This document shows positions 7,739 to 40,993 of a stretch of 64,000 bases of DNA, one piece after another. Source of the DNA: Gammaproteobacteria bacterium (lineage in GTDB: Bacteria > Pseudomonadota > Gammaproteobacteria > Eutrophobiales > Eutrophobiaceae); assembly GCA_011772965.1 (NCBI GenBank), contig WVYN01000014.1, forward strand, positions 161,002-225,001, read 5' to 3'. A program made the position numbers and the translations under genes. Numbering within the stretch: the stretch's first letter is position 1; each line of letters opens with the position of its first letter. The notes beneath the pieces were generated by a model that was not told the origin of the DNA, did no database searches, and saw nothing but the letters and a program-made list of their open reading frames with translations.

Positions 7739-10425
7739 TCTTTTTCCCCGTCTGTTATCGAATCTTTCTGTTTTTCATAAATGCGGCAAAATGAATGCAG
7801 ATCACACCTGATCCTGGTGCAGGTTGTATTGTCCTTGGGATCGACTCTGGCTATACCATGGCGAAAGTCACCGGCCAGCGAATCCAGCATTGTACGCCAT
7901 TGAATCAGCAGGTCAGGCCAATCCTTCACCGATTCCCTGGCCAGCTTCGATCCGTTAATGCTTTTTATACCTGGCAGCACGTTCTCATCATCTGACAGGC
8001 CACTAAACTTGATCTCACCCCTGCGTAGTTTGAGGAAGGCAACCGCGGCAACATCTCCATCGCTGTTAATTGCATACAGGGGCAACTGTGGTTCATCCGG
8101 ACGTTCACCCAGCCAGGCCGAGGCATTGGGTACAATAGAACCTGTCTTGTAATCGATAACAACCAGACGTCCGTCCTTTAATTGATCGACCCGGTCAATA
8201 CGCGTGATGATTTCGATATCATTGATCATGAATATATGTTTCAGCTCACATTCACTAACGGTAAACGCTTGTCTTTTCTTTTCGAGTTCAGCCAGTTCTA
8301 CCAGCAGAAGCTTTAGGCGGTTACATTCAATGTCGGTAAAGCGATCGGTAAACGTAAACGGCAACTGCTGTTGGTAACGTTTAACTATCCGCTTCACCAC
8401 AGCATCGACCACTTGTTCAAGTTGTGTAGCGGTCAATTGCAAAAGGTTTTCCAGACTGCCAGTCTCTCTCCAGAATTGTTCAACAACAGCATGTGCGATT
8501 GAGCCGCGTTCCAAGGCATCCAGCCCGATATCAGGAGACTTGAGACCTTCTGTCGCCAGCCGGTGGCGTGCAAATGCGCGGAAAGGACAGGCTGCCTGGT
8601 CCTTGAAAATGGCAGTTCCACCACTCAGCCTGACACCCTCAGGAATGGCCCGCACCTGATCATCAGGTAATGTTTCAATGCTTTTGCTGCCAAGCAAGTG
8701 ATTTGCATAGGATTTGAAAACAGGTATGTCAGGCGATGTCCCTGACAGATATTGCCGAATCAGGGCACTGGGTTGATAGACCTGATCTTTTTCCATCTCC
8801 GGGTAACTTAAAACAACCTCGGGTGACGAAGAGATTAACCGTTTCAGTAACATACTGGCGTGAACCAGAAAATTGCCGGGCGAGGCTGCGGGCAGGCCTA
8901 CGTCCCTCTGTAATGCTATCGGGATAAACGCATTGGGTACTTCCTGGCCGGGCCAGGCATTGTCATGCAGGTTCATGATCCAGAGATGGTCGAACTGCAT
9001 GCCGGCTGCACCATTGATACCCAGTATCTGTATGGAGGCCTCCCGGGTCTCGGGCTGGAATCGCTCGCTGGCCAGTAAGCTTCGCAATTGGCCCAGAGCG
9101 TCCTGATAAGTCATATCCTTACTGACGAGATCCAGCCTGGCCAGGTTATCCAGCGATGACTGCCACTCAAGCAGGGTCTGGTATTCATCACTGTCAAGCG
9201 ACCGTTCTCCTGGCCAGGCAAACAGCTCAAGTATTTGCGTAAAGAACTGCACCCATCTTGAAGGACTTTGCCGCGAGTCAGTGTTGGCAAACAGACGACC
9301 ACAGGCAAGGTAGGTCTCCAAAAAGATTGCTGGCACAATATCCGGGCTTAACTTCCCTCTTTCAATTAAAGTTTGCAGCTGTTGACGGGACACGTATGCC
9401 TCACAGGACTTGCGGATGGCTGCATCAAATTTTGCCCGGCACTGGCCTTCCTGCATTGATGCCTTTATGAAAGGTGAACGTAACAGTCTGCTGAATTCTT
9501 CCAGTTCTAGTGAGCACCTGCCCAGGGATAGGATCCGCAATGCTTCGACTATCATTGGGAAAGCGGATAAGGGACGTCCCAGGGAAACACTGAAACAGGA
9601 GGATTGCATGCCGGCGTTATCGAGAATGGTGCCGGGGTGCAGGACATCCTCAAATACGTTTTTAATTTCATGGGCCAGGTTGGCGAGCTTATTTACAACT
9701 ATACCAATACGCTGCCCCGGATTTTCCTCGAGCCGGGTCCGGGCCCAGCTGGCCGCGGTATACAACTCGGTGCGGTTGTCACGGAAAGCAAATGCCCGGG
9801 TCTCGATATTGCTCTGTTCAAGCGGTACTTCACGAATTTCACAGCCCTGCTCAGCCAGTCGCTGCAGGAGCTGGCATTGTTGCGGGGTGAGTTGATCGAA
9901 ACCGACCAGTGCCAGTTTCTCGGGACCTGGAATGAATTCATGCTGCATCGAGAGCAGTGTTGCCAATCCCGCCTGGTCAACCCAGTCCCGCTGTTCACAA
10001 ATTTTCCGGTACTCTTCTGACCAGAGCCGAAACGCATGGGCGTCATCATGGACATAGACTCCTTCCGGAAATATGGGGATCAGCCACTCATGGCATAACT
10101 GCCAGGATTGCATGGCCAGCCGGGCCGTTTGGCTCCGATTGAGCAGTCGCCTGCCATAGGGAGAGCGGTTGATAATGTCTGACCAGAGGTAGAGCTGCTG
10201 GGGTGTTGAGAGCAGCACCCGGTCGAGTTGCCGGGTAAAAACGAATTCCTTCCAGCAGCGTTGAAGCCAGCCCTGCCAGGGCAAGATATCCGGTGTCTGC
10301 CATGCTAACCTGCCCTGATCGGCCTGTTCCAATGCATACTGGTGTTGCAATGCACGGCTTAAACGGGTGGTAGGCGTGAGGAGACAATATCCTTGGTCCA
10401 GCAGCTGCCCTGATTCTTTATTCAT
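7735..10425 (-). CDS. addB: AddB-type double-strand-break repair protein (inactive helicase-like N-terminus, C-terminal PD-(D/E)XK nuclease with a 4-Cys Fe-S staple)
   Basis: The 896-aa protein has no Walker A motif. Its C-terminus has the VVIDYKTGS nuclease motif and the cysteines C..CTRIRCDLHSFC. It is translationally coupled to addA. Confidence 0.7.
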   Translation of the reverse strand: MNKESGQLLDQGYCLLTPTTRLSRALQHQYALEQADQGRLAWQTPDILPWQGWLQRCWKEFVFTRQLDRVLLSTPQQLYLWSDIINRSPYGRRLLNRSQTARLAMQSWQLCHEWLIPIFPEGVYVHDDAHAFRLWSEEYRKICEQRDWVDQAGLATLLSMQHEFIPGPEKLALVGFDQLTPQQCQLLQRLAEQGCEIREVPLEQSNIETRAFAFRDNRTELYTAASWARTRLEENPGQRIGIVVNKLANLAHEIKNVFEDVLHPGTILDNAGMQSSCFSVSLGRPLSAFPMIVEALRILSLGRCSLELEEFSRLLRSPFIKASMQEGQCRAKFDAAIRKSCEAYVSRQQLQTLIERGKLSPDIVPAIFLETYLACGRLFANTDSRQSPSRWVQFFTQILELFAWPGERSLDSDEYQTLLEWQSSLDNLARLDLVSKDMTYQDALGQLRSLLASERFQPETREASIQILGINGAAGMQFDHLWIMNLHDNAWPGQEVPNAFIPIALQRDVGLPAASPGNFLVHASMLLKRLISSSPEVVLSYPEMEKDQVYQPSALIRQYLSGTSPDIPVFKSYANHLLGSKSIETLPDDQVRAIPEGVRLSGGTAIFKDQAACPFRAFARHRLATEGLKSPDIGLDALERGSIAHAVVEQFWRETGSLENLLQLTATQLEQVVDAVVKRIVKRYQQQLPFTFTDRFTDIECNRLKLLLVELAELEKKRQAFTVSECELKHIFMINDIEIITRIDRVDQLKDGRLVVIDYKTGSIVPNASAWLGERPDEPQLPLYAINSDGDVAAVAFLKLRRGEIKFSGLSDDENVLPGIKSINGSKLARESVKDWPDLLIQWRTMLDSLAGDFRHGIARVDPKDNTTCTRIRCDLHSFCRIYEKQKDSITDGEKE

Positions 10426-27774: not shown

Positions 27775-27864
<90 letters not shown>

Positions 27865-27960
27865 ATATACCCATGGAGATGTATACATTATAAGCCGAGA
27901 AGTCCATGGATCGACGGGAGCGGTCTCCTTCTCAGCCAAGCGGATGACCAAGAATTCATA

Positions 27961-28629
27961 ATGGTTTTCATGAAATTCCGATTTTGTTTAGGTTTTTTTC
28001 TATTAATCATGCAGCAGCTTGCAGTTGCTGATTCAGTTAATTTTTATGATTATGATGAAGTCGCATCAAAGATTTTCTGGAATGAACTCTATAATGGTCA
28101 AGGTTGGACTTTGTATTGTGGATTACGACTTGCATCAATTCCTTCGCTGACCATATCCGGAATGACAGTATCGATTGAACATATATATACCAGTAATCGT
28201 ATGGTCCAGGCACTCGGTTGCCACAGTCGTCAACAATGCTATGAGAATAATCCCGACTTCAGGATCATGGAATCTGATCTGCATAATCTTTATCCTGTGT
28301 GGATTGACGCAAGCAATGCCTTATATGACAGTGAATACGGCATTATCGAGGGAGAGTACTGGCGCTTTGAAAATTGTGATCTCGAGCGTAAAAAGGGTGT
28401 TGTTGAACCCAGGCCGGTTGCCAGGGGCAACATAGCCCGTGCAATATTCTATATGCATAATACATATAATCTGCCGGTTTCAGAACAGACAATTGAAATT
28501 CTCAAGACATGGAATCTGGCAGACCCACCCAGCAAGCAGGAGATCAGGCGCAATGAAAAGATCCAGAAACTACAGGGCCGGCGTAATCCCTATATTGATA
28601 AACCTTCATTGGTTACGACATTAAAATGA
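27961..28629 (+). CDS. Extracellular/periplasmic endonuclease I family DNase
   Basis: It has a signal peptide and resembles EndA/Vvn, with RGNIARAIFYM and an N-terminal EHIY. The start is moved to 27961 to clear the tRNA. Confidence 0.65.
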   Translation: MVFMKFRFCLGFFLLIMQQLAVADSVNFYDYDEVASKIFWNELYNGQGWTLYCGLRLASIPSLTISGMTVSIEHIYTSNRMVQALGCHSRQQCYENNPDFRIMESDLHNLYPVWIDASNALYDSEYGIIEGEYWRFENCDLERKKGVVEPRPVARGNIARAIFYMHNTYNLPVSEQTIEILKTWNLADPPSKQEIRRNEKIQKLQGRRNPYIDKPSLVTTLK

Positions 28630-29681
28630 CACTACACAGGGGTCGTTTATTTGTAAACACCTGCCTGATAATCCTGGGCCTCTTGTTTGTTATTACTGCT
28701 TGCGGGAAAAAAACGGGTCAGAAAGATTTTCTCACGCTCACCGGCCTTACCATGGGGACAAGTTATAGCGTCAAGATTATTTATGATGATAAACCGCAGG
28801 AAAAAGCAATCAGGGGTGATATCGACAAGATTCTCGAATCGATCAATCGTAGTATGTCGACCTATATGGATGATTCAGAGTTGTCCAGAATAAACCAGGC
28901 GGCTGCTAATACATGGATTCCGGTATCGAACGATTTGTTTTCTGTTTTAGAGGCCGCAAGGGGAATCGGAAGGAGAAGCAATGGGTCATTCGATGTAACA
29001 GTGGGACCTCTGGTAAATCTCTGGGGATTCGGCCCTACAGAGCGGCCAATCAAACCACCTCCTGCCAGCAGGATCAGTAAATTGCTTGAAACGACTGGCT
29101 TTGAACGATTTGCCCTGGATAAGAAAACGCAGGCCATCAAGAAATCCGCAGATTCCGTCTATATCGATCTATCCGGGATAGCCAAGGGATACGCGGTAGA
29201 CAGGGTATCAAGCTTGCTCTTGGCTAAGTACCAACTGGCTGATCATCTGATCGAGATTGGTGGTGAGGTTAAGGCCTCCGGTCACAACCAGGCAGGAAAC
29301 AAATGGCAAATTGGCGTCGAAAGACCAGACTACACAAAGCGCACGATCCACAGGATCATCGGTCTTGAGGATCTGGCCATGGCCACTTCCGGTAATTACC
29401 GGAATTACTATGACCTTGAAGGAAAGCGTTATAGTCATACCATTGATCCACAAACTGGCTATCCAGTTGACCATCTGCTGCAGTCGGTCAGCGTACTCCA
29501 TGAGAGTGCCATGATAGCGGATGCCTGGGCAACCGCACTTCTTGTCATGGGTACCGAGAAAGCCAAGCTCCAGGCGGAAGAACTGACCCTGCCAGTACTT
29601 ATGGTCAGCAAAACCATGGACGGCAAGCATCGTGAAATCATGAACAATCATTTCAAAAAACATCTCGTAACAACCCATTAA
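28626..29681 (+). CDS. apbE: FAD:protein FMN transferase ApbE (lipoprotein)
   Basis: It has an ITAC lipobox, the motifs DLSGIAKGYAVD and MIADAWATAL, and is 351 aa. Confidence 0.8.
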   Translation: MTLHRGRLFVNTCLIILGLLFVITACGKKTGQKDFLTLTGLTMGTSYSVKIIYDDKPQEKAIRGDIDKILESINRSMSTYMDDSELSRINQAAANTWIPVSNDLFSVLEAARGIGRRSNGSFDVTVGPLVNLWGFGPTERPIKPPPASRISKLLETTGFERFALDKKTQAIKKSADSVYIDLSGIAKGYAVDRVSSLLLAKYQLADHLIEIGGEVKASGHNQAGNKWQIGVERPDYTKRTIHRIIGLEDLAMATSGNYRNYYDLEGKRYSHTIDPQTGYPVDHLLQSVSVLHESAMIADAWATALLVMGTEKAKLQAEELTLPVLMVSKTMDGKHREIMNNHFKKHLVTTH

Positions 29682-29692
29682 GTCAATACACG

Positions 29693-30031
29693 ATGAAAGC
29701 CATACCTGTCCTGTTGCTGCTGGTTCTGGCTGTCTGGTACTGGCAAATCAGCCTGAGAGGTCGTGAGTATGCCATCAGGCAATGCAAGTCCGTATGTAGG
29801 GATCTTGATATGCAACTGCTTGATCAGACAGTCTCCCTGTCAGGCATTCGACTTGGCATGACAGCAAACCGTGATTTAATGCTGATCAGGCGCTACCGAT
29901 TTGAAACCAGCTGCGACGGCCTGGACCGTTATAATGGTTACATGGTATTACATGGGCTTAATTTACAGTGCGTTGAAGTTGAACAGCCTGGCGGTAAAAT
30001 CATCATAGATAAAACTTCACATTTACATTAA
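29693..30031 (+). CDS. Hypothetical small protein with an N-terminal TM helix and four cysteines, immediately downstream of apbE
   Basis: The 112-aa protein has a hydrophobic N-terminus and cysteines at RQCKSVC, SCDG and QCVE. It lies 12 bp downstream of apbE. Confidence 0.4.
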   Translation: MKAIPVLLLLVLAVWYWQISLRGREYAIRQCKSVCRDLDMQLLDQTVSLSGIRLGMTANRDLMLIRRYRFETSCDGLDRYNGYMVLHGLNLQCVEVEQPGGKIIIDKTSHLH

Positions 30032-30050
30032 TAGCCTACAGGAGTCTGAA

Positions 30051-30533
30051 ATGCCCTCATTCGACATCGTATCCGAGATCGATATGCATGAACTCAGTAA
30101 TTCAATTGACCAGGCCAACCGGGAAATTACCAACCGATTTGATTTCAAGGGTACGAATTCAAGGGTGGAGTTGAAGGAAAACATCATCACTTTGGTGGCA
30201 CCTGCCGAATTCCAGATAAAACAAATTGAAGACATTCTAACCACGAAGATGTCAAAACGTGGTATAGATATTAAATGCCTCGAAAAGGGTGAGGTTACAG
30301 AAAATATTAACGAAGCCAAGAAGGCCATTACTGTCCGTCAGGGGATTGATAAAGAACTGGCAAAGACACTGGTAAAGCTGGTAAAAGATACCAAACTCAA
30401 GGTTCAGTCATCAATCCAGGGAGAACAGGTGCGGGTCACAGGTAAAAAGCGCGACGATTTGCAGGAGGTAATCCAGATGCTTAAAAACAGCAAGCTGGAT
30501 TTCCCGCTGCAATTCACCAACTTCAGGGACTAA
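30051..30533 (+). CDS. yajQ: YajQ family (UPF0234) nucleotide/c-di-GMP-binding protein
   Basis: MPSFDIVSEIDMHEL..REITNRFDFKG is the canonical YajQ N-terminus. The protein is 160 aa. Confidence 0.8.
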   Translation: MPSFDIVSEIDMHELSNSIDQANREITNRFDFKGTNSRVELKENIITLVAPAEFQIKQIEDILTTKMSKRGIDIKCLEKGEVTENINEAKKAITVRQGIDKELAKTLVKLVKDTKLKVQSSIQGEQVRVTGKKRDDLQEVIQMLKNSKLDFPLQFTNFRD

Positions 30534-31078
30534 ATCTTTCCATCAAGCCCCATCTGATAGTATTTGTGGACAATTTCTTCCTGGTTTGCCAGTAACCAGT
30601 CAATGTCCGGTTCATTCTTCATGGCCTTCTCTATGGCATTGAAAGTAGCTTTCCGATGAATATCAAACAGGATTTTGTGATCAAGCTCTTCTGCATCGGC
30701 AACCATCGGGTTTAACCAGACCGAGACTATAATCCCGAGATCATTCGTTTTCGCTTTAGGAATAATACCTTCTCTGACTGTATCCAGAACACCGTTGGCT
30801 ATTGCTCCCTGTACTGTTCCCATGAGGATATTGGTATAACGCTCCTTGTTAACAGTCACCTTGCTAACCATCAAGGTAGCCGGCTTGACCATGATGTCGG
30901 TGTTCATAATCGCCAATACGCGTGAATGTCCCTTGACCTGGTCACCCAGTAATGTGGCAAAAGCCGTACCGACCGGCCCGTCCAGTTCGCCTATGATTAT
31001 TTCCGGCTCTGCCGCTGTCCCCTGAGGTCCTCCCGCAACCAATGCCTCGCCTACACGCATAACAATACGTTCACTCAT
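30530..31078 (-). CDS. fae: Formaldehyde-activating enzyme (Fae / Fae-like; 5,6,7,8-tetrahydromethanopterin hydro-lyase family)
   Basis: The 182-aa protein aligns with Fae, sharing VGEALVAGG, NTDIMVKPATLM and EGIIP. It is convergent with yajQ with overlapping stop codons. Confidence 0.65.
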   Translation of the reverse strand: MSERIVMRVGEALVAGGPQGTAAEPEIIIGELDGPVGTAFATLLGDQVKGHSRVLAIMNTDIMVKPATLMVSKVTVNKERYTNILMGTVQGAIANGVLDTVREGIIPKAKTNDLGIIVSVWLNPMVADAEELDHKILFDIHRKATFNAIEKAMKNEPDIDWLLANQEEIVHKYYQMGLDGKI

Positions 31079-31140
31079 TAAATTACTCCTGATATTTGTT
31101 TTATTAAAAAAGACGGGTAAACCGTAAACCTGACAAATGA

Positions 31141-33693
31141 TTAGTCTTTTTTACTCAGTTGGGAATGAATATCTTCGAAAAGATTATTCGTTGCGTTTTT
31201 TGCGGCCCTTCTCGCAGCCTCGGCTTTCTCCTTGATCCGCCTGACGTGTTCAGAGTGTGACATGACTCTCGTTTGTTTCGCCTCTTCCAGCAATTGCTCT
31301 TCATTAAAAGAAGCAAGATCTGCTGCCACCTGCTGATCCAGTATGTCATGCTTGGTTGACTGTACCTCCATTTCCCTGCGTTTAATTTCTGCTGTAGTTT
31401 CCAGGTTTACCTTGACTTGATGGGCATTTTCAAGGTTCTTCTCGGCCTGTAGCAACTTGTGCTCAGCCATCCGCATCGCCTCAGCTGCTTCCTCTCTGGC
31501 CTTTTCATCAAGGGCATCCGCCTGGGCAGCCCGGAGTTTCTGTGCCTCGAGGGCTGCTGCAGCCTTGGCTGCTTCGGCCTCTTTTCTGGTTTTATCTATC
31601 TTACTCAGCGTTTGTTTGATCTTGCCGGATTCCAGCTCCAGTTGTTTTCTTTCCTGTTCCAGCCGTGCCCGTTCTTTTGCTCGTTCCTTTTCAAACTGTT
31701 TTTTATACTCTTCTATGATTTTCTTTGCTTCTTCAGCCGCCGCCTTACGTGCCGCCTCAGCAGCAGTATTTTCCTTGTTGGCCTGGTCAATCTCGTTATT
31801 GGCCTTCATGAATTCTTCGGCCAGTTTTCGTCTTTCAGCTTCAAGCGTAGCCATTGCTTTGGTCTGGATTTCCTGTTCCATCTTGGATTGTTCTTCGCGT
31901 TTTCTGGCAGACTCATCTTCTAGGGCCTTGCGTGATTCTTCAAGCTTGCGTTTGACTTCATCGGCACTCTCTAATTTTTTCCTGGCTTCCTCGGCTTCTT
32001 TCTCTATTTTTTCGCGCTCCTTGCGTAGCTGCTCCTCTGCCTGCTCCTTCAATTTCTGGAGTTTTTCCATTTCCCGGGTGTTCTTGGTATAGATTTCCTC
32101 CAGTTTCTTCTTTTCTTCTGCTAGGCGCTTTTCGGTCTCTTCTTTAAGTTTTTCAATCTTCCGTGCTTCTTCTTCCCTGAATTTTCTGGTTTCTTCCTCG
32201 GCTGCTTTCTTCGCCTCGGCAAGTTGCTTACGTTCCTCTTCGAGTTGCCTTTTCTTCTCTCTTATCTCGGTGATATCTTCATCATCTTTCGCCCCGGACA
32301 GCTTGTTACTGGTACGTTCCAGTCTGATATCATTCAGGGTCATGTCTGCATCAAGTGCAGCTGAGCGAATGCTGGGATCATCGTCCTCAGTTTCCAATTG
32401 CTGATCTTGTACTGGCTCTGGTTTTGTTTCCGCCTTGGGTGCGGCCTCGGGCACGGGTTCCATGGTTTCAGGCTTTGCTTTTTGCCCAGCTTCAGCTTTT
32501 ACCCTCGGCCTGAGATTTACACCCTCACTGTCGTCTTTCCTGGGTACAGGCTTGGCTTCCGGTTTTTTCTCAGGTTCCGCTTTCTGTTTCGGCCGCAGGT
32601 TTACTCCGCTACTTTCGACATGTGATATCGACAATCCGCCTTTCAGGACACTGGCCTTAAAGCCATTGCTAATCATGGTAAATACCGCAGCCGAGCTGCG
32701 ACCACCGGAATCACAGCAGACAAGATAATGCTTGCTCCGGTCAAGACTATCCAGTTTTGCCCTTAGAAGATTGAAAGGAATATTGATACTGCCCTTGATG
32801 TTCGACTCCTCATATTCATCCTTGAAGCGCACATCCATCCAGACCGCGGCACCACTATCAACCAGGGATTTACCCTGTTCAAAGCTTATTTCGTTCAGTG
32901 ATGGTAATGTGACCAGAGTAATGAAATTTTCCTTGCTAAGTTTCATCAAGGTGCCATCGGTCAACATGGTGACAGAGGCATTTCTGGTTCCATCTGTCAA
33001 TAAGGCCTCTTCCCCGAAACTGTCCCCGTCTTTAAGTTCCGCCAGCTTGATCGGTTTCGCGCCTTCTGAGGGGGCGCGGGAAACTTCACAATGACCTTCC
33101 TGGACGATGTAATAACTGTCTCCCGGCTCTCCTTGCTCGATAACCGTATCTCCGGCCTTGTAGTCAATGGGTTCGAGCATGACAAACAGCTGTTGAATAT
33201 TGGCGGTAGGTAACTGGCTAAAGATTTCTGATTGCAACATCTTGGTCATCCAGTCAACGGTATCATCCTGATCGATTTCGTTAACAACAAAGTGCCGACT
33301 GGTGGTGATGTCACCTTCTTCAGATTTGTCGGCAACCAGGATTCGGTCAATTGCAGCCTTGTCCAGTTGCAGAACCATGGAATCCACTTTGGCCCTGGCA
33401 GTGAACTGGCGTGGCAAGAGGCGGGCCATTGCATAACGGGCACTGTCAGTACCACCGACGATGGTACTTTTCACATCTCTGCCCGCCATTAAATCAATCT
33501 TGCCTTCCAGCAGGTAAAAGGCGTAATTGTCATGGTCCCCTTGTTTGAAGACAATATCCTTATTCTTGAACTTGAAGATCTTGCCTATCTGGACGATCTC
33601 ATTCTGTGCCTGGGGAGATATTTCATCGAAAGGCACCAGCGACTTGATCTTCTCCTTGTATGGAGCCTTGTCCTGTTCTTTATTGAATATCAT
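31141..33693 (-). CDS. Large multidomain protein: two cNMP-binding domains, a rhodanese domain with an active-site Cys, a Pro/Lys-rich linker with a tandem repeat, and a roughly 430-aa E/K/R-rich coiled-coil or single-alpha-helix C-terminal region
   Basis: It has two cNMP-binding folds (..GDSFGEEALL..), the rhodanese loop YLVCCDSGGRSS, repeated GVNLRP[KR].KAE..K.KPE units, and then hundreds of residues of EEARK/KLKE periodicity. It is 850 aa. Confidence 0.7.
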   Translation of the reverse strand: MIFNKEQDKAPYKEKIKSLVPFDEISPQAQNEIVQIGKIFKFKNKDIVFKQGDHDNYAFYLLEGKIDLMAGRDVKSTIVGGTDSARYAMARLLPRQFTARAKVDSMVLQLDKAAIDRILVADKSEEGDITTSRHFVVNEIDQDDTVDWMTKMLQSEIFSQLPTANIQQLFVMLEPIDYKAGDTVIEQGEPGDSYYIVQEGHCEVSRAPSEGAKPIKLAELKDGDSFGEEALLTDGTRNASVTMLTDGTLMKLSKENFITLVTLPSLNEISFEQGKSLVDSGAAVWMDVRFKDEYEESNIKGSINIPFNLLRAKLDSLDRSKHYLVCCDSGGRSSAAVFTMISNGFKASVLKGGLSISHVESSGVNLRPKQKAEPEKKPEAKPVPRKDDSEGVNLRPRVKAEAGQKAKPETMEPVPEAAPKAETKPEPVQDQQLETEDDDPSIRSAALDADMTLNDIRLERTSNKLSGAKDDEDITEIREKKRQLEEERKQLAEAKKAAEEETRKFREEEARKIEKLKEETEKRLAEEKKKLEEIYTKNTREMEKLQKLKEQAEEQLRKEREKIEKEAEEARKKLESADEVKRKLEESRKALEDESARKREEQSKMEQEIQTKAMATLEAERRKLAEEFMKANNEIDQANKENTAAEAARKAAAEEAKKIIEEYKKQFEKERAKERARLEQERKQLELESGKIKQTLSKIDKTRKEAEAAKAAAALEAQKLRAAQADALDEKAREEAAEAMRMAEHKLLQAEKNLENAHQVKVNLETTAEIKRREMEVQSTKHDILDQQVAADLASFNEEQLLEEAKQTRVMSHSEHVRRIKEKAEAARRAAKNATNNLFEDIHSQLSKKD
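32507..32620 (-). repeat. Imperfect tandem repeat of about 84 bp within the Pro/Lys-rich linker of the cNMP/rhodanese protein
   Basis: cggcctgagatttacaccctcactgtcgtc at 32507 matches cggccgcaggtttactccgctactttcgac at 32591. This repeat encodes the duplicated peptide GVNLRP. Confidence 0.5.
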
Positions 33694-33808
33694 GACTTAT
33701 ATCCCTTTCCCGGGATGATTAATGTACACTTTGAAACAGTCTCTTAAAGGAATGAACCAAAGCTTTAGATTATATAGATTTGGTGAGGGATAGCATACCC
33801 GTAAGTCT

Positions 33809-34498
33809 ATGAATCAATTAACACAATTAATCTCGGAACTGAATTTGATCAGTCTTGCTATCGTGGTTCTGACCGGACTACTGGGCGTGTTGCTGTTATT
33901 CCTCGGTTTGCGCCATCTCTGGCAGCGTCGCATCTTCTCGGGAGGCTTTAATGGACTGCTCGGGATTTGCCTGCTGTTGGTGGCAGCCGCAGTCCTACTG
34001 GTTACACTAAATTTGCTTACATATCATAGACTTAAATACGAAGAACCGATTCTTACCATCCATTTCAATAAGCTGGGGGAGAAACAGTATTCGGCTGATT
34101 TGAAATTAAAGGATAACGGACAAACAGCTGTCTATAACCTCTCAGGTGACGAGTGGCAAATTGATGCCCGGGTCCTGAGCTGGAAACCGCCTGCCCGGAT
34201 CCTCGGGCTGAATGCCATGTACAGGCTTGAACGTCTGCATGGGCGCTATCAGTCCATTGACCATGAGCGGCAACGTGATAGGACCGTCTACTCACTGGTT
34301 GAAAACAAGGGCCTGGATATCTGGCCACTCGTAAAAAAATATAATGACCGGATCGCCTGGGTTGATGCCTACTTTGGCAGTGCCACCTACCTGCCAATGG
34401 AAGATGATGCCACCTATGAGGTTCTTATTTCCCAGAATGGACTTATCGCCCGACCGTTAAATTCTCCGGCCCGGGCCCGCCTGAATGAATGGCAATAA
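33809..34498 (+). CDS. Hypothetical membrane protein (two N-terminal TM helices plus a soluble domain)
   Basis: The 229-aa ORF has reasonable coding statistics. No family was recognised. Confidence 0.4.
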   Translation: MNQLTQLISELNLISLAIVVLTGLLGVLLLFLGLRHLWQRRIFSGGFNGLLGICLLLVAAAVLLVTLNLLTYHRLKYEEPILTIHFNKLGEKQYSADLKLKDNGQTAVYNLSGDEWQIDARVLSWKPPARILGLNAMYRLERLHGRYQSIDHERQRDRTVYSLVENKGLDIWPLVKKYNDRIAWVDAYFGSATYLPMEDDATYEVLISQNGLIARPLNSPARARLNEWQ

Positions 34499-34518
34499 AA
34501 ACTATTTACAGGGAGCAT

Positions 34519-36624
34519 TTACTTAAACACGATGCGGATACTTACCCCACTGTCCTCCTCAAGGTTCTCGGCAACAATCTCAGCATGATGGAACTCGGCA
34601 ATGATCCGGGCAATATAAAGCCCCAGTCCCAGATGTGGACTGTCTTTCTTTTGTTTCTCACGCATAGAGACCATTGAGTCAAACAACTGTCCCTTCATGT
34701 CTTCCGGAAGTAATGGTCCATAGTTACTGACAGTGATTGAATTGACAGAGTCATCACTGGATAGAGCTATCGAAACTGGTGTATCCGGCTCACTGAAATC
34801 AACAGCATTCGAAACCAGCTTATCCAGCATCTGCATGAACAGATCAGGCGCGATGTCCATGACCTGTTCTGTGTCTGGCAAGGTCAATTCAAAACGCTGG
34901 GATGGATAGGCGATACGATAACCCTCAACCGCCTGTGTCAATAACCTGCAAATATCAACTTTAGTTTTGCCAGCTGATTGCAGGGCCTGTTCAAGGCGGG
35001 CGGCCTCACTCAGGCGTGTCACCAGAAGATTTAATCGCTGTATACCATCACGGGCACGTTGAATATAAACCTGTTTGTCTTCTTCAATACCCGAATCAAT
35101 ATTATCCAGGGAAGACTGGACCACAGCCATTGGTGTACGTAATTCATGTGACAGTTTCCCTGCCATGCCTTCCAGGTAATGATTGTACTGTTTGAGTCTC
35201 TCCAGAATAGTGGCGTAGTTGCGTGAAAGATCGCCAATTTCATCGCTGGCATGACTTTTAGACATGTCACCGATCACCCGGCCATACTCGTCTATTGCAC
35301 TTGCGGCTTCCTTACTCAAACGTTGCAGCCTGATTGAAAGGCGGCTGGCAAAGATCAAAAGCAGCAGGATGATGATGAAGAATAACAACAGGGTTTTATT
35401 GACAAGGCTGACCAGGGCATCACGTTGTAACAACTGAATGTTGTTTGTTGTCTCTTCCGCAACTACCACACCCCGGATTTCATCAAAGACCCATACCGGT
35501 GCGGCAGCAGAGACGATTACTGCTTTTTTATCGGGAGATAATCGCCAACGCGACTCCGGTTTCCCATTCAGGGCTGATTGTATTTCTTTGCCGTAAAGTC
35601 TGGAAGCACCGGCCAGATCATCCTCGAAGCGGTCTGTCACAGGCGGCAGGATAAGTTTATAAAACAGGTTCAGTGGATGTTTGCTAATGTCATGCCTGAG
35701 ATTGCCTGCATTGGCCAATACCTGTCCGCGACTGTCAAGCACCCAGATTCGCCTGCCAGGGCTGCTGTGCAGGCGGGTAATCATATTTTCCAGATGATTG
35801 TCAGGAAGAATCACCCTCCCCGGCCTGATAAGAGTATCGTTTCCAGCCGTACCAGTATATTTAAATTTTAACTGACCATTACCCGAGTCTGTATCAGCAA
35901 CAACGATTCCCAGGCGATCATGAGACAGGTTTAGTGGTAACGCTATTTCGAGATTATAACCGTTATCAAACGGTTGCCAGCTTGCAACGATATTGGTTTT
36001 ATAACGAATAAATTTTTTTTCGATCCAGTCATCACGCACTGTCTCAATCTGGAAAGGGTTGAAATTACCCGGGACCGAGGGAGCAAAATAATATTTTTGC
36101 CTGATTACATAATCATCGCCAATTACCATAATTATATGATCACTGTCTATGATTGCCTCAGTGTCAGGCTGATGATAAATGATATTTTCATCATTGATTT
36201 GCAATAAAACATGAAGAGTATTTTCAAAAATACCTGCAACCAGACGATAGGAACCGTCAGGATATGTGAATTCAGTACTTGTACCCAGTTCCCGCGGATA
36301 GATTTCAGACCAGTCGAGATACTGGATCCAGTCATCAAGATAACCATCTGTTTGTATTGGAGTGTTCAATTGATGAATAAAGAATGTTGGATCCACCGCA
36401 GTCTGTCGATCGGGGAAACGTCGATAACTCTGGTGTAATGAAGCAGCAATCGCCCTGGTGGATTCAAGGAGTGATGATTCAAGGTTAGTGCGCAATCGAT
36501 GTTCCATCTCACTCATGTATTCATAAGCGATATAGGGCAAAGTGAGTATCGCGATGGATAAAAGTAATAATTTGACGCGGATGGTGAATCGAAACCCGTC
36601 TGGCTTCTTATTTAATGACGACAC
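34519..36624 (-). CDS. Sensor histidine kinase of the proteobacterial dedicated sortase system (PdsS-like), with a large periplasmic sensor domain
   Basis: It has an N-terminal TM helix, a periplasmic region of about 380 aa, a second TM helix, a HisKA domain (LSHELRTPM) and a HATPase_c domain. It is 701 aa and lies adjacent to pdsR. Confidence 0.7.
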   Translation of the reverse strand: MSSLNKKPDGFRFTIRVKLLLLSIAILTLPYIAYEYMSEMEHRLRTNLESSLLESTRAIAASLHQSYRRFPDRQTAVDPTFFIHQLNTPIQTDGYLDDWIQYLDWSEIYPRELGTSTEFTYPDGSYRLVAGIFENTLHVLLQINDENIIYHQPDTEAIIDSDHIIMVIGDDYVIRQKYYFAPSVPGNFNPFQIETVRDDWIEKKFIRYKTNIVASWQPFDNGYNLEIALPLNLSHDRLGIVVADTDSGNGQLKFKYTGTAGNDTLIRPGRVILPDNHLENMITRLHSSPGRRIWVLDSRGQVLANAGNLRHDISKHPLNLFYKLILPPVTDRFEDDLAGASRLYGKEIQSALNGKPESRWRLSPDKKAVIVSAAAPVWVFDEIRGVVVAEETTNNIQLLQRDALVSLVNKTLLLFFIIILLLLIFASRLSIRLQRLSKEAASAIDEYGRVIGDMSKSHASDEIGDLSRNYATILERLKQYNHYLEGMAGKLSHELRTPMAVVQSSLDNIDSGIEEDKQVYIQRARDGIQRLNLLVTRLSEAARLEQALQSAGKTKVDICRLLTQAVEGYRIAYPSQRFELTLPDTEQVMDIAPDLFMQMLDKLVSNAVDFSEPDTPVSIALSSDDSVNSITVSNYGPLLPEDMKGQLFDSMVSMREKQKKDSPHLGLGLYIARIIAEFHHAEIVAENLEEDSGVSIRIVFK

Positions 36625-36652
36625 GGTAAAAACTCAATCCTGTTCAGATGTT

Positions 36653-37342
36653 CTATAGATTCCAGCGGTAACCGAGACCATATATTGTTTCAATACAGTC
36701 AAATTCCTTGTCAACAGTTATAAATTTTTTCCTGATTCTTTTGATATGCGAGGTAATAGTCCCCTCATCAACAAACATTTTTGCTTCACTCATCAATTGT
36801 TCTCTGCTTTTGACATGCCCCGGCCTGTATGCCAAAGAGTAGACGATCCAGAATTCCGTGAGGGTGACATCAATTTTGCTGGATTTCCATTCAAGCAAAA
36901 GCCGGTTTTTGTCGATCATCAAGTGGCCATGGCTGATGACATCATCTTCAGTGACCGGGTTACGAAAGGCATCGATTCTGCGAAACAGCGCAGCTATCCG
37001 GGCAAGCAACTGTGGCATGGTAATGTCCTTGGTCAGGTAATCATCCGCACCAAGTCTCAGGCCCGAGATGGTATCAAGATCCGAATCCCTGGCTGTAAGG
37101 AAAATAATCGGTACGATTTCTGAAAGGTTTCGTAATTCGCGACATAGATCGAAACCCCCCTCGTTCTCTTCACCAAGACCCACATCGATGAGTATCAGAT
37201 CTGGCAGTTTCTGGCTGAATTGTTTCAATGCCTCCTTGCGATTGGTATAGCTTGATACCTGGTATCCCTGCTTTTGCAGGGCATCCGAATAATTTTCCCG
37301 AATGTCGCTCTCATCCTCAACCAGCGCAACTGTTTTCACCAT
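36653..37342 (-). CDS. OmpR-family response regulator of the dedicated sortase system (PdsR-like)
   Basis: It has a REC domain (LVEDE..D, DLILIDVGL, K at ..TKD..) and a C-terminal winged-helix trans_reg_C domain. It is 229 aa. Confidence 0.75.
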   Translation of the reverse strand: MVKTVALVEDESDIRENYSDALQKQGYQVSSYTNRKEALKQFSQKLPDLILIDVGLGEENEGGFDLCRELRNLSEIVPIIFLTARDSDLDTISGLRLGADDYLTKDITMPQLLARIAALFRRIDAFRNPVTEDDVISHGHLMIDKNRLLLEWKSSKIDVTLTEFWIVYSLAYRPGHVKSREQLMSEAKMFVDEGTITSHIKRIRKKFITVDKEFDCIETIYGLGYRWNL

Positions 37343-37426
37343 TCAACTTCCCCGTTCTGCTCCTATGTCAATGTATAATATTTTCTGGCAAAAATATTCC
37401 CCTCACGCACAATTGCCATAATTTCG

Positions 37427-37455
37427 CCATATTTCATCGTTTCATTTCCATATTT
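37427..37455. promoter_or_regulatory. Direct repeat CCATATTT(n13)CCATATTT in the divergent pdsR/pdsO intergenic region, a candidate OmpR-type (PdsR) operator
   Basis: CCATATTT occurs at 37427-37434 and again at 37448-37455, a spacing of 21 bp. Interleaved TTTCAT repeats are also present. Confidence 0.3.
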
Positions 37456-37529
37456 TCAGCGCTGTTTGGCCACAGATAAGCGCTTAAATACTTTCCTGTA
37501 ATCGACTTGCATCAGACAGGAGAGATCAA

Positions 37530-38237
37530 ATGAAACAAGCAATATCTACCCTTCTAATCATCAGCGCATTTGCCGGTCCGGTCGCTATGGCAGATGAGCA
37601 AACGACGCTGGCTATCCATGAGACCGGTGGTTTGGGTGTTGGTGCCCTGATCGGCGGCCTCATAGCGGGACCTCCCGGAATTGTGCTGGGAGCTGCAGGC
37701 GGTGCCATTTACGGTAACCGTCAGGGTGAAAAGGAAAACCAGTTGACCGCCATGGAAAGAAAACTGCAGGACCGGGAAGTAGAGCTGGCTGTCGTTAAGA
37801 ACGAGTTATCAAAAACCCGTTCTGATTATTCCAGCAAAATGCAGAAAGTCACCCTGGACAATCGTAAGGCATCACTGGATGAGCTGACCCAGGGGATTTC
37901 CATGTCGGTTTTCTTTCGCACCAACCAGAGCCGTATCGACCTTGGCTTGAAGCCTCACTTGCACAGACTGGTGGCGCTTATACAGGACATACCGGAATTG
38001 TCCGTCAGCCTGGACGGCTATGCCGACCAGCGAGGCGATGAATCACATAACCTCCAGCTCAGCCGCGATCGTGCCCGTGCCGTGGAGGATGAACTGATCA
38101 GGGCCGGGCTCCCACGGGAACGCATCAAACAGCAGGCACATGGTGAATCCAGTGTACGTGCTGCAGACGGGGACATCGAAGGCTACGTATTTGACCGGCG
38201 CGTGGATATCGAGCTGACCGTCGAGGCCGAAGCGTAA
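37530..38237 (+). CDS. OmpA-family protein of the dedicated sortase system (PdsO-like): signal peptide, glycine-zipper, coiled coil, and a C-terminal OmpA peptidoglycan-binding domain
   Basis: It has the signal peptide, a GGLGVGALIGGLIAG glycine-zipper, and the OmpA_C motif LDGYADQRGDESHNLQLSRDRA. Confidence 0.7.
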   Translation: MKQAISTLLIISAFAGPVAMADEQTTLAIHETGGLGVGALIGGLIAGPPGIVLGAAGGAIYGNRQGEKENQLTAMERKLQDREVELAVVKNELSKTRSDYSSKMQKVTLDNRKASLDELTQGISMSVFFRTNQSRIDLGLKPHLHRLVALIQDIPELSVSLDGYADQRGDESHNLQLSRDRARAVEDELIRAGLPRERIKQQAHGESSVRAADGDIEGYVFDRRVDIELTVEAEA

Positions 38238-38262
38238 CCCGTCCTCAAGCCCAGAATCCATT

Positions 38263-40386
38263 ATGAATCTGAAAAAAACACCATTACTGGCAAATACAGT
38301 TCTGTGCATTCTCGAGAGTCTGCTGGCTGCGGCCATTGGTACTGTATTCCTGGTGTGTCTCGTCCTGTTGCTGTCTGGTATTGCCAGTGCCAATACCAGG
38401 GAAGGTATGACAGCGATGGACACCCTCAGCATCAGGGACATGGGAAACGTCACCCGTGGAAGTCTGTTGTTTCACAACAATAAGGATTATCAACTTGCCC
38501 CGACATTACATACAGATGTTGATATGAGTATCACGGGCATGATCGCCCGGGTCAAGCTGGCACAACGGTTTCATAATCCCGACACGGTCTGGCAGGAAGG
38601 CATTTATGTCTTTCCCTTGCCCGAGAATGCGGCGGTAGATCACCTGCGCATGAGGATAGGCAAAAGAGTGATAGAGGGGCAGATACGAGAACGTGAAACT
38701 GCAAAAAAAGAATATCAAAAGGCACGTGATAATGGTCAGAAAGCAAGCCTTGTGGAACAGGAACGCCCGAATATTTTTACGACTTCTGTTGCCAATATTG
38801 GTCCCGGTGAGGAGATAATCATTGAAATTGAATACCAGCAGACAGTTCGTTATGACTCAGGTGAGTTCCGCCTCAGGTTCCCGATGGTTGTTGCGCCGAG
38901 ATATATTCCGGGCAGTACAGTTGTTCAAGGCTTTTCAGGATCAGGTTGGGCAGTTAATACTGATCAGGTGCGGGATGCCGAACGCATTACCCCGCCTGTG
39001 ACAAAACCCGGTGAGACAGCAGTTAATCCGGTGATGATCGACATCCACCTGGACGCGGGCTTTCCCCTGGAGCATATCACCAGTTCCCATCATAACATCC
39101 GGATAGATCAGCAGGACGCATCAACGTATTCCATTCAACTGGAGCATGTAACCATGGCCGACAGAGATTTCGAACTTTACTGGCAACCCGAAAAGAAAGA
39201 TGCCCCACAGGCAGCATTCTTCAGGGAACGAAAACACAACATGGATTATGGATTGATCATGATGCTGCCACCCTTACAGCAAAGTGGTCAGGTGCTCAAT
39301 CGTGAGGTGGTGTTTGTGATTGATACCTCTGGTTCCATGGGTGGTCAGTCCATTATACAAGCGAGATCGGCATTAAAGATGGCTCTTGAACGCCTTAAAC
39401 CCGGCGACAGTTTCAACATTATCGAATTCAATTCACATACAGATCAGTTGTTCGAATGGCCGCGATTGGTAAATCATCAATCTTTAAGACAGGCAAAGCA
39501 ATATGTAACTGGTCTGGATGTCAGTGGCGGTACAGAAATGTTACCGGCTCTGAAACTGGCATTGAATGATAACAATAATACATCTTCGGTCAGGCAGGTA
39601 ATTTTCCTGACAGATGGCAGCATTGGCAATGAAGCCGCCCTGTTTAACACCATCACCCGGAAACTGGGCAGGAGCCGGCTATTTACAATCGGGATTGGTT
39701 CTGCACCAAATTCACATTTCATGACCAGGGCTGCACGCTTTGGCCGGGGTACCTACACATACATCGGCAAGGTCAGCGAGGTCGAAACAAAAATGTCGAC
39801 ATTATTTGGCAAACTGGAAAGCCCTGTTCTTACCAACATCCACATAGACTGGGGCGATGCCACAGACCTGGAAGCCTGGCCAAAGTACATTCCCGATCTC
39901 TATCTGGGCGAACCCCTGCTGGTAAGTGTCTCCGCTTCATCACTGCCGGAAAGGATTCGGTTAACAGGCAGCGTCTCCGGTTCACTCTGGAAAACCAGCA
40001 TGCAATTAAAAGGCCATGGTGAACATGAAGGCATCCACGCCCTTTGGGCCCGAAAAAAAATTGCGGCTTTGATGGACCTGCTCAATCAGGCAAAAGAGGA
40101 AAACAACCTTAAACAGCAAGTTATAGAGACTGCATTACGACATCACCTGGTGAGCCGGTTTACCAGCCTCATTGCTGTTGACGTTACCCCGTCGCGCATC
40201 AAGGAGGATTTACTGAGGATATCTGCCCTGCCGGTCAACCTTCCGTCCGGCTGGCAATATGAAAAAGTATTCGGTCAGTTGCCGCAGACCGCAACAGATG
40301 CGGAACTGAAAATCCTGATAGGCACGCTGCTGCTGTTAATCAGTGTGTTTCTTGTGATGAGCCGGCGTTATGTTTATCCCGACTGA
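38263..40386 (+). CDS. Sortase target protein: VIT domain plus von Willebrand factor A domain, with a C-terminal LPQTA sorting signal, TM helix and basic tail
   Basis: The VWA MIDAS motif is DTSGSMGG. The C-terminus reads LPQTATDAELKILIGTLLLLISVFLVMSRRYVYPD. The protein is 707 aa. Confidence 0.75.
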   Translation: MNLKKTPLLANTVLCILESLLAAAIGTVFLVCLVLLLSGIASANTREGMTAMDTLSIRDMGNVTRGSLLFHNNKDYQLAPTLHTDVDMSITGMIARVKLAQRFHNPDTVWQEGIYVFPLPENAAVDHLRMRIGKRVIEGQIRERETAKKEYQKARDNGQKASLVEQERPNIFTTSVANIGPGEEIIIEIEYQQTVRYDSGEFRLRFPMVVAPRYIPGSTVVQGFSGSGWAVNTDQVRDAERITPPVTKPGETAVNPVMIDIHLDAGFPLEHITSSHHNIRIDQQDASTYSIQLEHVTMADRDFELYWQPEKKDAPQAAFFRERKHNMDYGLIMMLPPLQQSGQVLNREVVFVIDTSGSMGGQSIIQARSALKMALERLKPGDSFNIIEFNSHTDQLFEWPRLVNHQSLRQAKQYVTGLDVSGGTEMLPALKLALNDNNNTSSVRQVIFLTDGSIGNEAALFNTITRKLGRSRLFTIGIGSAPNSHFMTRAARFGRGTYTYIGKVSEVETKMSTLFGKLESPVLTNIHIDWGDATDLEAWPKYIPDLYLGEPLLVSVSASSLPERIRLTGSVSGSLWKTSMQLKGHGEHEGIHALWARKKIAALMDLLNQAKEENNLKQQVIETALRHHLVSRFTSLIAVDVTPSRIKEDLLRISALPVNLPSGWQYEKVFGQLPQTATDAELKILIGTLLLLISVFLVMSRRYVYPD

Positions 40387-40993
40387 AAAAATATTATTTA
40401 TTTGCTTACTCACTACTGTGACCTTTTGTGGCTTGTGGCAGGTAGGTCATGGTGCCTACATCCATGCCAAGGCAATCCTAGCGCAACTCCTCCTAGAGTC
40501 GGCATGGTCAGAAACACTGTCCGGGGCAAGGGAGGTGAAACCATGGCCCTGGGCAGATACCTGGCCAGTCAGCCGACTTGCTGCCCCACGCCTTGGGATA
40601 AGCCGCATCGTCCTGGCCGGGGCAAGTGGTGCTTCACTTGCCTTCGGTCCAGGACATCTTTTTGGTACGGCGCCCGCAGATCAAGCGGGAAACAGCGTCA
40701 TTGCCGGTCACAGGGATACACATTTTAGATTTCTGCAATACCTGACCGATGGCGATATATTGTTGCTTGAAACCAGTGAAGGAAAACAAAGACGATATCA
40801 GGTAACACTTACCCGGGTTATCCATGAAAGTGAAATCGGCTACCTGCAGCAGACCAGAGAAAATCGCCTGACGCTTATTACCTGTTTTCCCTTCAACAGC
40901 CCGGTGGCCGGTGGTGCACAACGATATATTGTCATTGCCCGGGAAATCGAGAAGGTAGATGGGATTGATTCCGGGGCAATAATTGCCATCTAG
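40370..40993 (+). CDS. Sortase (proteobacterial/marine type transpeptidase)
   Basis: It has an N-terminal TM anchor, the catalytic His in AGHRDTHF, the catalytic Cys in LTLITCFP, and a downstream Arg. It overlaps the target gene by 17 bp. Confidence 0.75.
   Translation: MFIPTEKILFICLLTTVTFCGLWQVGHGAYIHAKAILAQLLLESAWSETLSGAREVKPWPWADTWPVSRLAAPRLGISRIVLAGASGASLAFGPGHLFGTAPADQAGNSVIAGHRDTHFRFLQYLTDGDILLLETSEGKQRRYQVTLTRVIHESEIGYLQQTRENRLTLITCFPFNSPVAGGAQRYIVIAREIEKVDGIDSGAIIAI

Follow-up and report, generated by a model that had tools for sequence, protein, structure and literature searches.

The window analysed here, 64,000 nt in length (contig WVYN01000014.1, positions 161,002 to 225,001, from a gammaproteobacterium of the family Eutrophobiaceae), harbours at 31141..33693 on its minus strand an 850-aa gene that is an intact member of a widespread and unstudied gammaproteobacterial family. 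Its product combines two consecutive cyclic-nucleotide-binding (CNB) domains with a rhodanese domain, a disordered linker and a long helical tail. The best reading of this arrangement, to which a probability of roughly 45 % is assigned, is of a protein whose persulfide or thiol switch is gated by a cyclic nucleotide monophosphate (cNMP), and which the tail dimerises or positions. The features concerned are as follows.

31141..33693, minus strand: complete coding sequence (CNB-A, CNB-B, rhodanese, linker and helical tail), from the list of open reading frames (ORFs), the identical protein P0241 / NIN35294.1 and at least 120 full-length homologs.
33325..33651, minus strand: CNB-A, approximately residues 15-123; second Pfam stretch, AlphaFold2 (AF2) beta-barrel with a predicted local distance difference test score (pLDDT) of 80-89, Foldseek matches to PKG/PKA.
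32908..33252, minus strand: CNB-B, approximately residues 148-262, with a canonical cassette and C202; best Pfam stretch at 177-260, AF2 pLDDT 80-88.
32626..32895, minus strand: rhodanese domain, approximately residues 267-356; PF00581, weak NCBIfam matches, AF2 pLDDT 80-88.
32692..32715, minus strand: rhodanese active-site loop C327-D-S-G-G-R332-S-S, of CX4R type, read from the sequence.
32383..32625, minus strand: disordered Pro/Lys/Glu/Ala linker, residues 357-437; AF2 pLDDT of approximately 33 and composition.
32293..32376, minus strand: predicted tail helix 0, residues 440-467, with the motif DPxIRASVLExxLxRTN, kept in A1 and A2; pLDDT 83-92 in the AF2 tail model.
31960..32283, minus strand: predicted tail helix 1, residues 471-578, 64 % charged and resembling a single alpha-helix (SAH), with the motif EEKKKLEEIY535xxN538; AF2, periodicity and charge pairs.
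31516..31944, minus strand: predicted tail helix 2, residues 584-726, 47 % charged, with the motif A645-x-A647-x-R649-x-A651-A652-x-x-E655-A656...E662; AF2 and periodicity.
31156..31506, minus strand: predicted tail helix 3, residues 730-846, 36 % charged, with heptads and the motif EHxKRIKERAEAAK...NLFxDIxSQL; AF2 and periodicity.

The ORF begins with an ATG, which is preceded at a distance of 8 nt by a Shine-Dalgarno-like AGGGA, and contains zero internal stops. An identical protein, derived from a metagenome-assembled genome (MAG), is already deposited at NCBI as NIN35294.1 and under three other accessions, with the generic name "cyclic nucleotide-binding domain-containing protein", and 5 contigs carry it. 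A search with the full-length sequence returned at least 120 proteins of approximately 790-950 aa, most of which cover 98-100 % of the query at 38-67 % identity; all contain both PF00027 and PF00581, and none is functionally named. The single intact tripartite ORF proposed in a preliminary description of this DNA is borne out by these homologs, in which the same architecture recurs. The component domains are all known, but a full-text literature search found no study of the CNB-rhodanese architecture or its tail, in agreement with the earlier statement that no characterised protein of this kind is known. Promoter and terminator scans around the gene gave nothing exceeding shuffle expectation, an Rfam scan of 29500-35000 for a riboswitch or leader RNA gave no match, and no signal peptide or sorting signal could be read in the protein sequence.

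Two stretches of the N-terminal half match Pfam cNMP_binding (PF00027; E-value 4.7e-30, 103.9 bits against a cut-off of 27.5). Both copies are modelled by AF2 as beta-barrels, and Foldseek aligns both to the tandem CNB domains of PKG and PKA, which are also the best PDB matches (phmmer E-value 6e-23; Foldseek E-value 3e-19; 3shr and 4z07). CNB-B displays the phosphate-binding cassette F226-G227-E228-E-A-L...R237-N238-A239, in which a Gly-Glu pair is followed nine residues on by an Arg, the same Glu-to-Arg spacing as in the PKA RI-alpha cassette; G227, E228, R237, N238 and A239 are each kept in at least 245 of 247 relatives. The cassette of CNB-A is degenerate, with A85-R86-Y87 at the F-G-E positions and P94-R95 alone retained, and, as this pattern is conserved family-wide, the site is probably not a canonical cNMP site. 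Thus, whilst the two cyclic-nucleotide-binding folds initially described are both found by Pfam, AF2 and Foldseek, only CNB-B looks, from its cassette, ligand-competent. CNB-B also carries a cysteine, C202, that is invariant in 38 long forms of the protein and present in 236 of 247 relatives. A Pfam scan of the 850 aa at E-values up to 1 revealed no helix-turn-helix family and no DNA-binding domain, so the protein is not a CRP/FNR regulator, and the source labels "CRP-like cAMP-binding protein" (cAMP, cyclic AMP) on homologs mirror the CNB domains only. Two consecutive CNB beta-barrels are likewise found in PKA regulatory subunits and PKG; the present family differs in having neither a kinase nor an inhibitor/pseudosubstrate segment, in that its downstream effector is a rhodanese, and in that its putative dimerisation or targeting element is a C-terminal tail of 410 aa rather than an N-terminal docking domain or leucine zipper.

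Pfam Rhodanese (PF00581) matches residues 273-354 (E-value 2.8e-14, 53.8 bits against a cut-off of 22.2), such that both domain families named in the preliminary description exceed their curated cut-offs. The loop CCDSGGRSS, which had been picked out as catalytic, occupies residues 326-334 and contains an intact six-residue CX4R sequence (C327-R332). C327, R332, S333 and S334 are invariant among 38 full-length homologs, with C327 present in 238 of 239 aligned relatives. A six-residue CX4R loop that retains its Cys is unlike the inactive rhodanese homology domains and unlike the CX5R loop of Cdc25. The fold, the CX4R loop and the conserved Cys, then Ser-Ser, are shared with the single-domain rhodaneses PspE and GlpE and with the MoeZ/MoeB and ThiI modules, and a further likeness is to the rhodanese of a CoA-persulfide reductase (PDB match 8a56, E-value 1.8e-6). 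In contrast to the PspE, GlpE, MoeZ and ThiI rhodaneses, however, that of this family is fused to CNB domains and occurs without sulfur-pathway genes nearby. In the AF2 model approximately four low-confidence residues (262-265) alone separate the C-helix of CNB-B from the rhodanese.

Structural predictions were made for the full-length protein, with 38 sequences, and for the tail alone, with 16 sequences. Both AF2 runs leave residues 357-437 disordered, at a pLDDT of approximately 33. Within residues 361-450 the composition is 14 % P, 13 % E, 12 % K and 12 % A, and the motif GVNLRP occurs at 362-367 and again at 391-396, each time followed by xxKAE, the copies being 29 aa apart. Linker length and sequence vary widely across the family, and among aligned homologs the duplicated GVNLRPxxKAE is shared by a 96 %-identical relative only. 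A Pro/Lys-rich linker carrying the motif twice is therefore present as first described, whilst the supposed tandem repeat is better regarded as a short duplicated motif, Tandem Repeats Finder having detected no tandem repeat in the linker DNA.

Beyond the linker, both AF2 runs predict four helices, at 440-467, 471-578 (or to 583), 584-726 (or 587-726) and 730-846. This tail had been described as almost pure E/K/R/A, which is overstated: residues 451-850 comprise 20.7 % E, 15.0 % K, 14.7 % A and 8.7 % R, a sum of 59 %, and 18 % of residues 471-846 are hydrophobic. The charged fraction drops along its length, from 0.64 in helix 1 to 0.47 in helix 2 and 0.36 in helix 3. Alignment columns with a hydrophobic residue in 60 % or more of homologs lie mostly 7, 3, 4 or 8 residues apart, and Fourier analysis of the conservation profile gives a period of 3.6 for residues 471-578 (z 11) and 584-726 (z 7.7), which arises from heptads mixed with 8-residue spacings, and a peak at 3.5 (z 7.4) for 730-846, to which the 3.5 period is confined. 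The core so formed is sparse, each heptad contributing approximately one strongly hydrophobic residue. In residues 471-578 and 584-726, enrichment of opposite charges at i,i+4 (z 4.4 and 4.5, respectively) is accompanied by depletion of like charges (z -3.7 and -3.2), and opposite-charge pairs at i,i+3 are also enriched in 471-726; residues 730-846 display neither salt-bridge enrichment nor like-charge depletion.

In these respects residues 471-726 resemble the ER/K SAH domains found, for example, in myosin VI/X and caldesmon, being E/K/R-rich, with opposite charges enriched, like charges depleted and long helices predicted, a likeness of composition and pattern. They also differ from them: the charged fraction of such domains is roughly 80 %, as opposed to 36-64 % in the present tail, which additionally possesses hydrophobic positions at a period of 3.5-3.6, invariant motifs and three conserved helix breaks. 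The SAH or coiled-coil periodicity noted at the outset stands as regards predicted long helices, salt-bridge pairs in 471-726 and a heptad period in 730-846, but not as regards a featureless pure SAH, which is ruled out by the conserved hydrophobic stripe and the invariant motifs.

The tail aligns end to end in homologs at 36-70 % identity, with its length conserved at approximately 400 aa. Conserved motifs lie at both ends, and its invariant residues include Y535, N538, A645, A647, R649, A651, A652, E655, A656, E662, L685, E707, L720, A750, R819 and A827. The two main helix breaks in the AF2 models fall at indel-prone, poorly conserved alignment positions, and at the first helix junction several homologs harbour helical insertions of 30-140 residues. 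When a profile of the tail was compared with 1.84 billion cluster representatives, only 221 matches were obtained at E-values up to 1e-3 (160 of them at no more than 1e-10, and 67 at no more than 1e-30), which rules out a generic low-complexity coiled coil. Nearly all of these matches constitute the C-terminal half of proteins of 750-1100 aa, behind two CNB domains and a rhodanese. Ten are atypical; four have an N-terminally truncated CNB and/or rhodanese portion, four lack any Pfam domain and look tail-only (P0343, P0373, P0259 and P0320), one, P0374, has no Pfam match but a divergent CNB-A-like N-terminus that can be read from its sequence, and the tenth is P0362, a PP2C fusion described below. 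As judged by this conservation and rarity, the tail is a family-specific module of approximately 410 residues and not low-complexity filler.

Two relatives depart from the complete form. In locus L002 an in-frame TAA (9951-9953) replaces the Tyr codon equivalent to Y663, within the motif IIEEYKK, leaving ORFs of 650 and 180 aa, and in locus L001 the relative ends (at 9842) 6 residues past the same motif. Such interruptions may mean that the last third of the tail can be dispensed with, or they may stem from faulty assembly. The stop and the truncation at the same place also lend some colour to the fusion artefact of two ORFs considered in the preliminary description, and to a decaying gene with a tail of low-complexity read-through. 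Both are refuted, given that the at least 120 homologs span 99-100 % of the 850 aa at the identities given above, that the tail carries invariant residues along its whole extent, and that the identical protein is present on 5 contigs.

With regard to the distribution of the family, a search with residues 1-373 returned 2611 relatives, many of which are of approximately 350 aa and end directly after the rhodanese, and a scan of one genome per species identified 559. The long form is found in Methylohalomonas lacus HMT 1 and in many gammaproteobacterial MAGs, and the short form in Steroidobacteraceae, Povalibacter, Lentisalinibacter, Thiohalomonas and Sulfuriflexus; hosts of the family include many sulfur oxidisers and methylotrophs. 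In 190 of 195 cases, a neighbour-joining tree of core sequences places a protein nearest to one of its own form, and it requires approximately five switches between long and short. This clean separation indicates that the 350-aa core is autonomous and the tail an addition that one part of the family has stably inherited, and the occurrence of the core alone in many Gammaproteobacteria identifies the two CNB domains and rhodanese as the functional unit. The core is also fused, in P0362 and P0394 only, to PP2C, which was accordingly rejected as a common alternative output. In P0362 (1737 aa) the PP2C is succeeded by a coiled coil of approximately 750 aa, and this by a transmembrane segment, a Pro-rich stretch and then an FGE-sulfatase domain; these fusions point to a modular sensor head able to drive another, membrane-spanning output. 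In 7 loci (L005, L006, L009, L011, L012, L014 and L022, of which L011 is that of Methylohalomonas lacus HMT 1) the ortholog is accompanied, at a distance of 0.4-2.6 kb, by a second paralog with the same CNB, rhodanese and tail arrangement; these paralogs measure approximately 610-1050 aa, and their tails have diverged further. None was found in the 64-kb window.

These distributions bear on the possibility that the protein has a chiefly structural or cytoskeletal role, as a scaffold whose tail self-assembles or acts as a spacer or ruler and whose CNB-rhodanese head only regulates assembly. The tail makes up approximately half of the protein, shows conservation from end to end and is kept at some 400 aa, a few tail-only proteins exist, extra helical repeats are inserted at one helix junction, and the hydrophobic stripe and heptad segment would fit helix-helix association. 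However, the core alone is the more widespread form, such that the head works without a tail, and the interrupted genes of L002 and L001 suggest that the distal tail is dispensable. The hydrophobic seam is, moreover, sparse, and the tail-only matches may be fragments of split genes. A scaffold is on balance unlikely. The ruler or tether and the sulfur-transfer scaffold put forward in the preliminary description are likewise conjectural.

The preferred reading, that of a cNMP-gated persulfide or thiol switch, envisages a soluble cytoplasmic signalling protein in which a very short connector lies between a tandem of CNB domains, resembling those of PKA R and PKG, and a single-domain rhodanese. 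cAMP or cyclic GMP (cGMP) would bind CNB-B and shift its C-terminal lid helix, which is predicted to run straight into the rhodanese, and this movement would alter the accessibility or reactivity of Cys327. The latter could then act in sulfane-sulfur transfer, or as a thiol/persulfide switch, with the family-invariant Cys202 on CNB-B as a candidate relay or disulfide partner. In the tail, the first 250 residues would form stiff, salt-bridged charged helices with a narrow conserved hydrophobic face, and the last 117 an amphipathic heptad helix ending in a conserved motif; the tail most likely serves for dimerisation, for docking of the head at some partner or location, or for both. Its 376 helical residues would extend for approximately 55 nm if fully stretched out, or for approximately 16-21 nm as three antiparallel helices.

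The gating proposed here is drawn by analogy from PKA, PKG, Epac and the mycobacterial cAMP-gated acetyltransferase, in which the ligand repositions a C-terminal lid helix. The mycobacterial enzyme (Pat/KATmt) is a precedent for cNMP-driven lid movement gating a fused catalytic domain, and, as in the present family, its CNB domain is attached straight to an enzyme domain. Matches of the CNB-B region to NF058543 (E-value 3.8e-13) and PDB 4ava (E-value 3e-8) cover the CNB domain only, and Pat/KATmt differs in that its effector is a GNAT acetyltransferase, its CNB domain is single and it has no tail. A looser likeness is to CbpA (PA4704) of Pseudomonas aeruginosa, reportedly a non-CRP cAMP-binding protein located at the cell pole; it is a multi-CNB protein that is not a transcription factor and has no known output, and it is not known to possess either a rhodanese or a long helical tail.

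Several observations weigh against the gated switch. The cassette of CNB-A has no Gly-Glu pair, and N238, after the cassette Arg of CNB-B, is invariant where Ala, Ser or Thr is usual, both being departures from PKA and PKG; the invariant Asn means that the ligand may not be cAMP or cGMP. The matches of the rhodanese to NCBIfam models (PspE, MoeB/MoeZ, ThiI and GlpE) reach 18-31 bits against cut-offs of 70-647, the 31 bits belonging to PspE with a cut-off of 102, and scores so far under every cut-off indicate that the domain is not an ortholog of the PspE, GlpE, ThiI or MoeZ rhodaneses. Predicted template modelling scores of 0.26 and 0.31 in the two AF2 runs provide no confident head-tail or helix-helix packing. 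No conserved sulfur-metabolism neighbour was found in the clustered neighbourhoods (ORFs from 82 genome loci).

The same two domains could instead serve as a non-catalytic dual-input sensor, wherein the rhodanese Cys would respond to sulfane sulfur, thiosulfate or oxidants and CNB-B to a nucleotide, and a partner held by the tail motifs would receive the combined state. Consistent with this are the two invariant cysteines, C202 and C327, in adjacent domains, the many sulfur oxidisers and methylotrophs among the hosts, the fusion of the core to an unrelated output, PP2C, as is typical of sensor modules, and the short conserved tail motifs, which are suited to protein binding. Sequence does not separate such a sensor from the cNMP-gated switch. 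No adjacent partner gene is conserved, however, the divergent membrane protein beside the gene being adjacent in only 14 of 52 loci of its own family, and the dual sensor is regarded as an improbable alternative. A more ambitious version of the gated switch, that the family represents a new class of second-messenger effector in which a cAMP/cGMP-gated persulfide relay (Cys327 and Cys202) is held at a defined distance from an anchor by a semi-rigid tail tens of nm long, must be considered distinctly doubtful.

In the window, the gene is transcribed divergently from a gene at 33809, and the kinase of a sortase system (TIGR03785, 634 bits) starts 826 nt away, confirming the divergent arrangement and the distance of approximately 0.8 kb originally noted. 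The kinase belongs to a complete proteobacterial dedicated sortase locus at 34519-40993, which comprises the following.

34519-36624: sortase-system kinase.
36653-37342: sortase-system regulator.
37530-38237: PdsO.
38263-40386: a 707-aa ORF that clusters with the VIT/VWA target of related loci.
40370-40993: a 207-aa ORF that clusters with the sortase of related loci.

Long-form genes occur in two main settings. Ten loci, including the window, share a type I order of sortase genes, a divergent 229-aa protein with two transmembrane segments, the CNB-rhodanese gene and a Fae-like gene, sometimes followed by the second paralog, and then YajQ, DUF3301 and ApbE. The kinase is present in 9 of these 10, L019 having no sortase genes within its flanks. 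Seven loci display a type II order, without sortase genes, of YajQ, DUF3301, one or two copies of the gene, PilZ, Sel1, a MoxR-like AAA protein and a CoxE-like VWA protein. Of the 27 long-form genome loci, 9 have the kinase close to the gene, every one of type I and none of type II.

That the protein might be an accessory component of the adjacent dedicated sortase system is suggested by the 826-nt distance to the kinase and by the recurrence of the same order in those 9 loci. All of these loci, however, share a wider synteny (Fae, ApbE and YajQ), so that the adjacency reflects common descent, and the seven type II loci have a different neighbourhood altogether. Six metagenome loci (L085, L087, L088, L090, L092 and L093) pair the divergent neighbour with the CNB-rhodanese gene but have no kinase directly behind the neighbour, and in L094 the sole kinase match lies approximately 3.8 kb beyond it. 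In the neighbour's own family, the kinase follows in 9 of 45 metagenome loci. The protein sequence, as noted, displays neither a signal peptide nor a sorting signal. A sortase role is thus very improbable; the adjacency noted in the preliminary description is inherited gene order, limited among the 82 genome loci and 80 metagenome loci clustered to one syntenic lineage.

The divergent neighbour itself (33809-34498, plus strand) encodes 229 aa with two predicted transmembrane helices, has no Pfam or NCBIfam match, and carries the invariant motifs GDxWQxDAR, RLERxxGRY and YLPM. Its metagenomic relatives number at least 461, the majority lying away from both CNB-rhodanese and sortase genes, and they look like a separate uncharacterised family. 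As an obligate partner it was rejected, since the CNB-rhodanese gene is adjacent in only 14 of the 52 loci that have enough flank.

On the other side, 62 nt downstream and on the same strand, lies the Fae-like gene (30530-31078, minus strand; TIGR03126, 134.7 bits against a cut-off of 118), which suggests a methylotrophic host. No terminator-like site is present in the 62-nt gap, such that co-transcription is possible, and the order of CNB-rhodanese gene then Fae recurs in 8 genome loci and approximately 6 metagenome loci. A DUF3301 and YajQ pair follows in the window at 29693-30533 (plus strand), YajQ being a c-di-GMP-binding (cyclic di-GMP) family. Over both layouts these two are the most persistent neighbours, found in 12 of 27 long-form genome loci and in 0 short-form loci; they lie within approximately 6 kb of long-form genes, including those of L009, L012, L071, L085-L094 and others, and a PilZ-domain gene is also adjacent in the type II neighbourhood. 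The proximity of YajQ, DUF3301 and PilZ may reflect a second-messenger theme, or else regional synteny. Further away, a tRNA-Ser (CGA) gene lies at 27775-27864 (plus strand), and the N-terminus of a 282-aa ORF listed at 27781-28629 is a spurious read-through of it; the real gene there, which is endonuclease I-like, probably starts further downstream.

To our knowledge, few bacterial cAMP/cGMP receptors beyond CRP-type transcription factors have been characterised. The present family comprises thousands of sequences across the Gammaproteobacteria, in cultured Methylohalomonas, Steroidobacteraceae and Sulfuriflexus, in sulfur-oxidising symbiont lineages and in marine metagenomes, and wires a PKA/PKG-like sensor to a cysteine-persulfide domain. 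It is also tractable, given its small soluble core, two invariant cysteines for mutants and at least one cultured long-form organism. If the gating proposed here is true, cyclic-nucleotide signalling would be tied directly to sulfur transfer or thiol redox chemistry, and the conserved tail would be a rare bacterial case in which a long charged helix serves for positioning. Should the anchored relay also prove true, the family would represent a bacterial counterpart of anchored PKA signalling, through which sulfur-oxidising and methylotrophic Gammaproteobacteria would connect cyclic-nucleotide signalling with the trafficking of sulfur or with thiol redox control.

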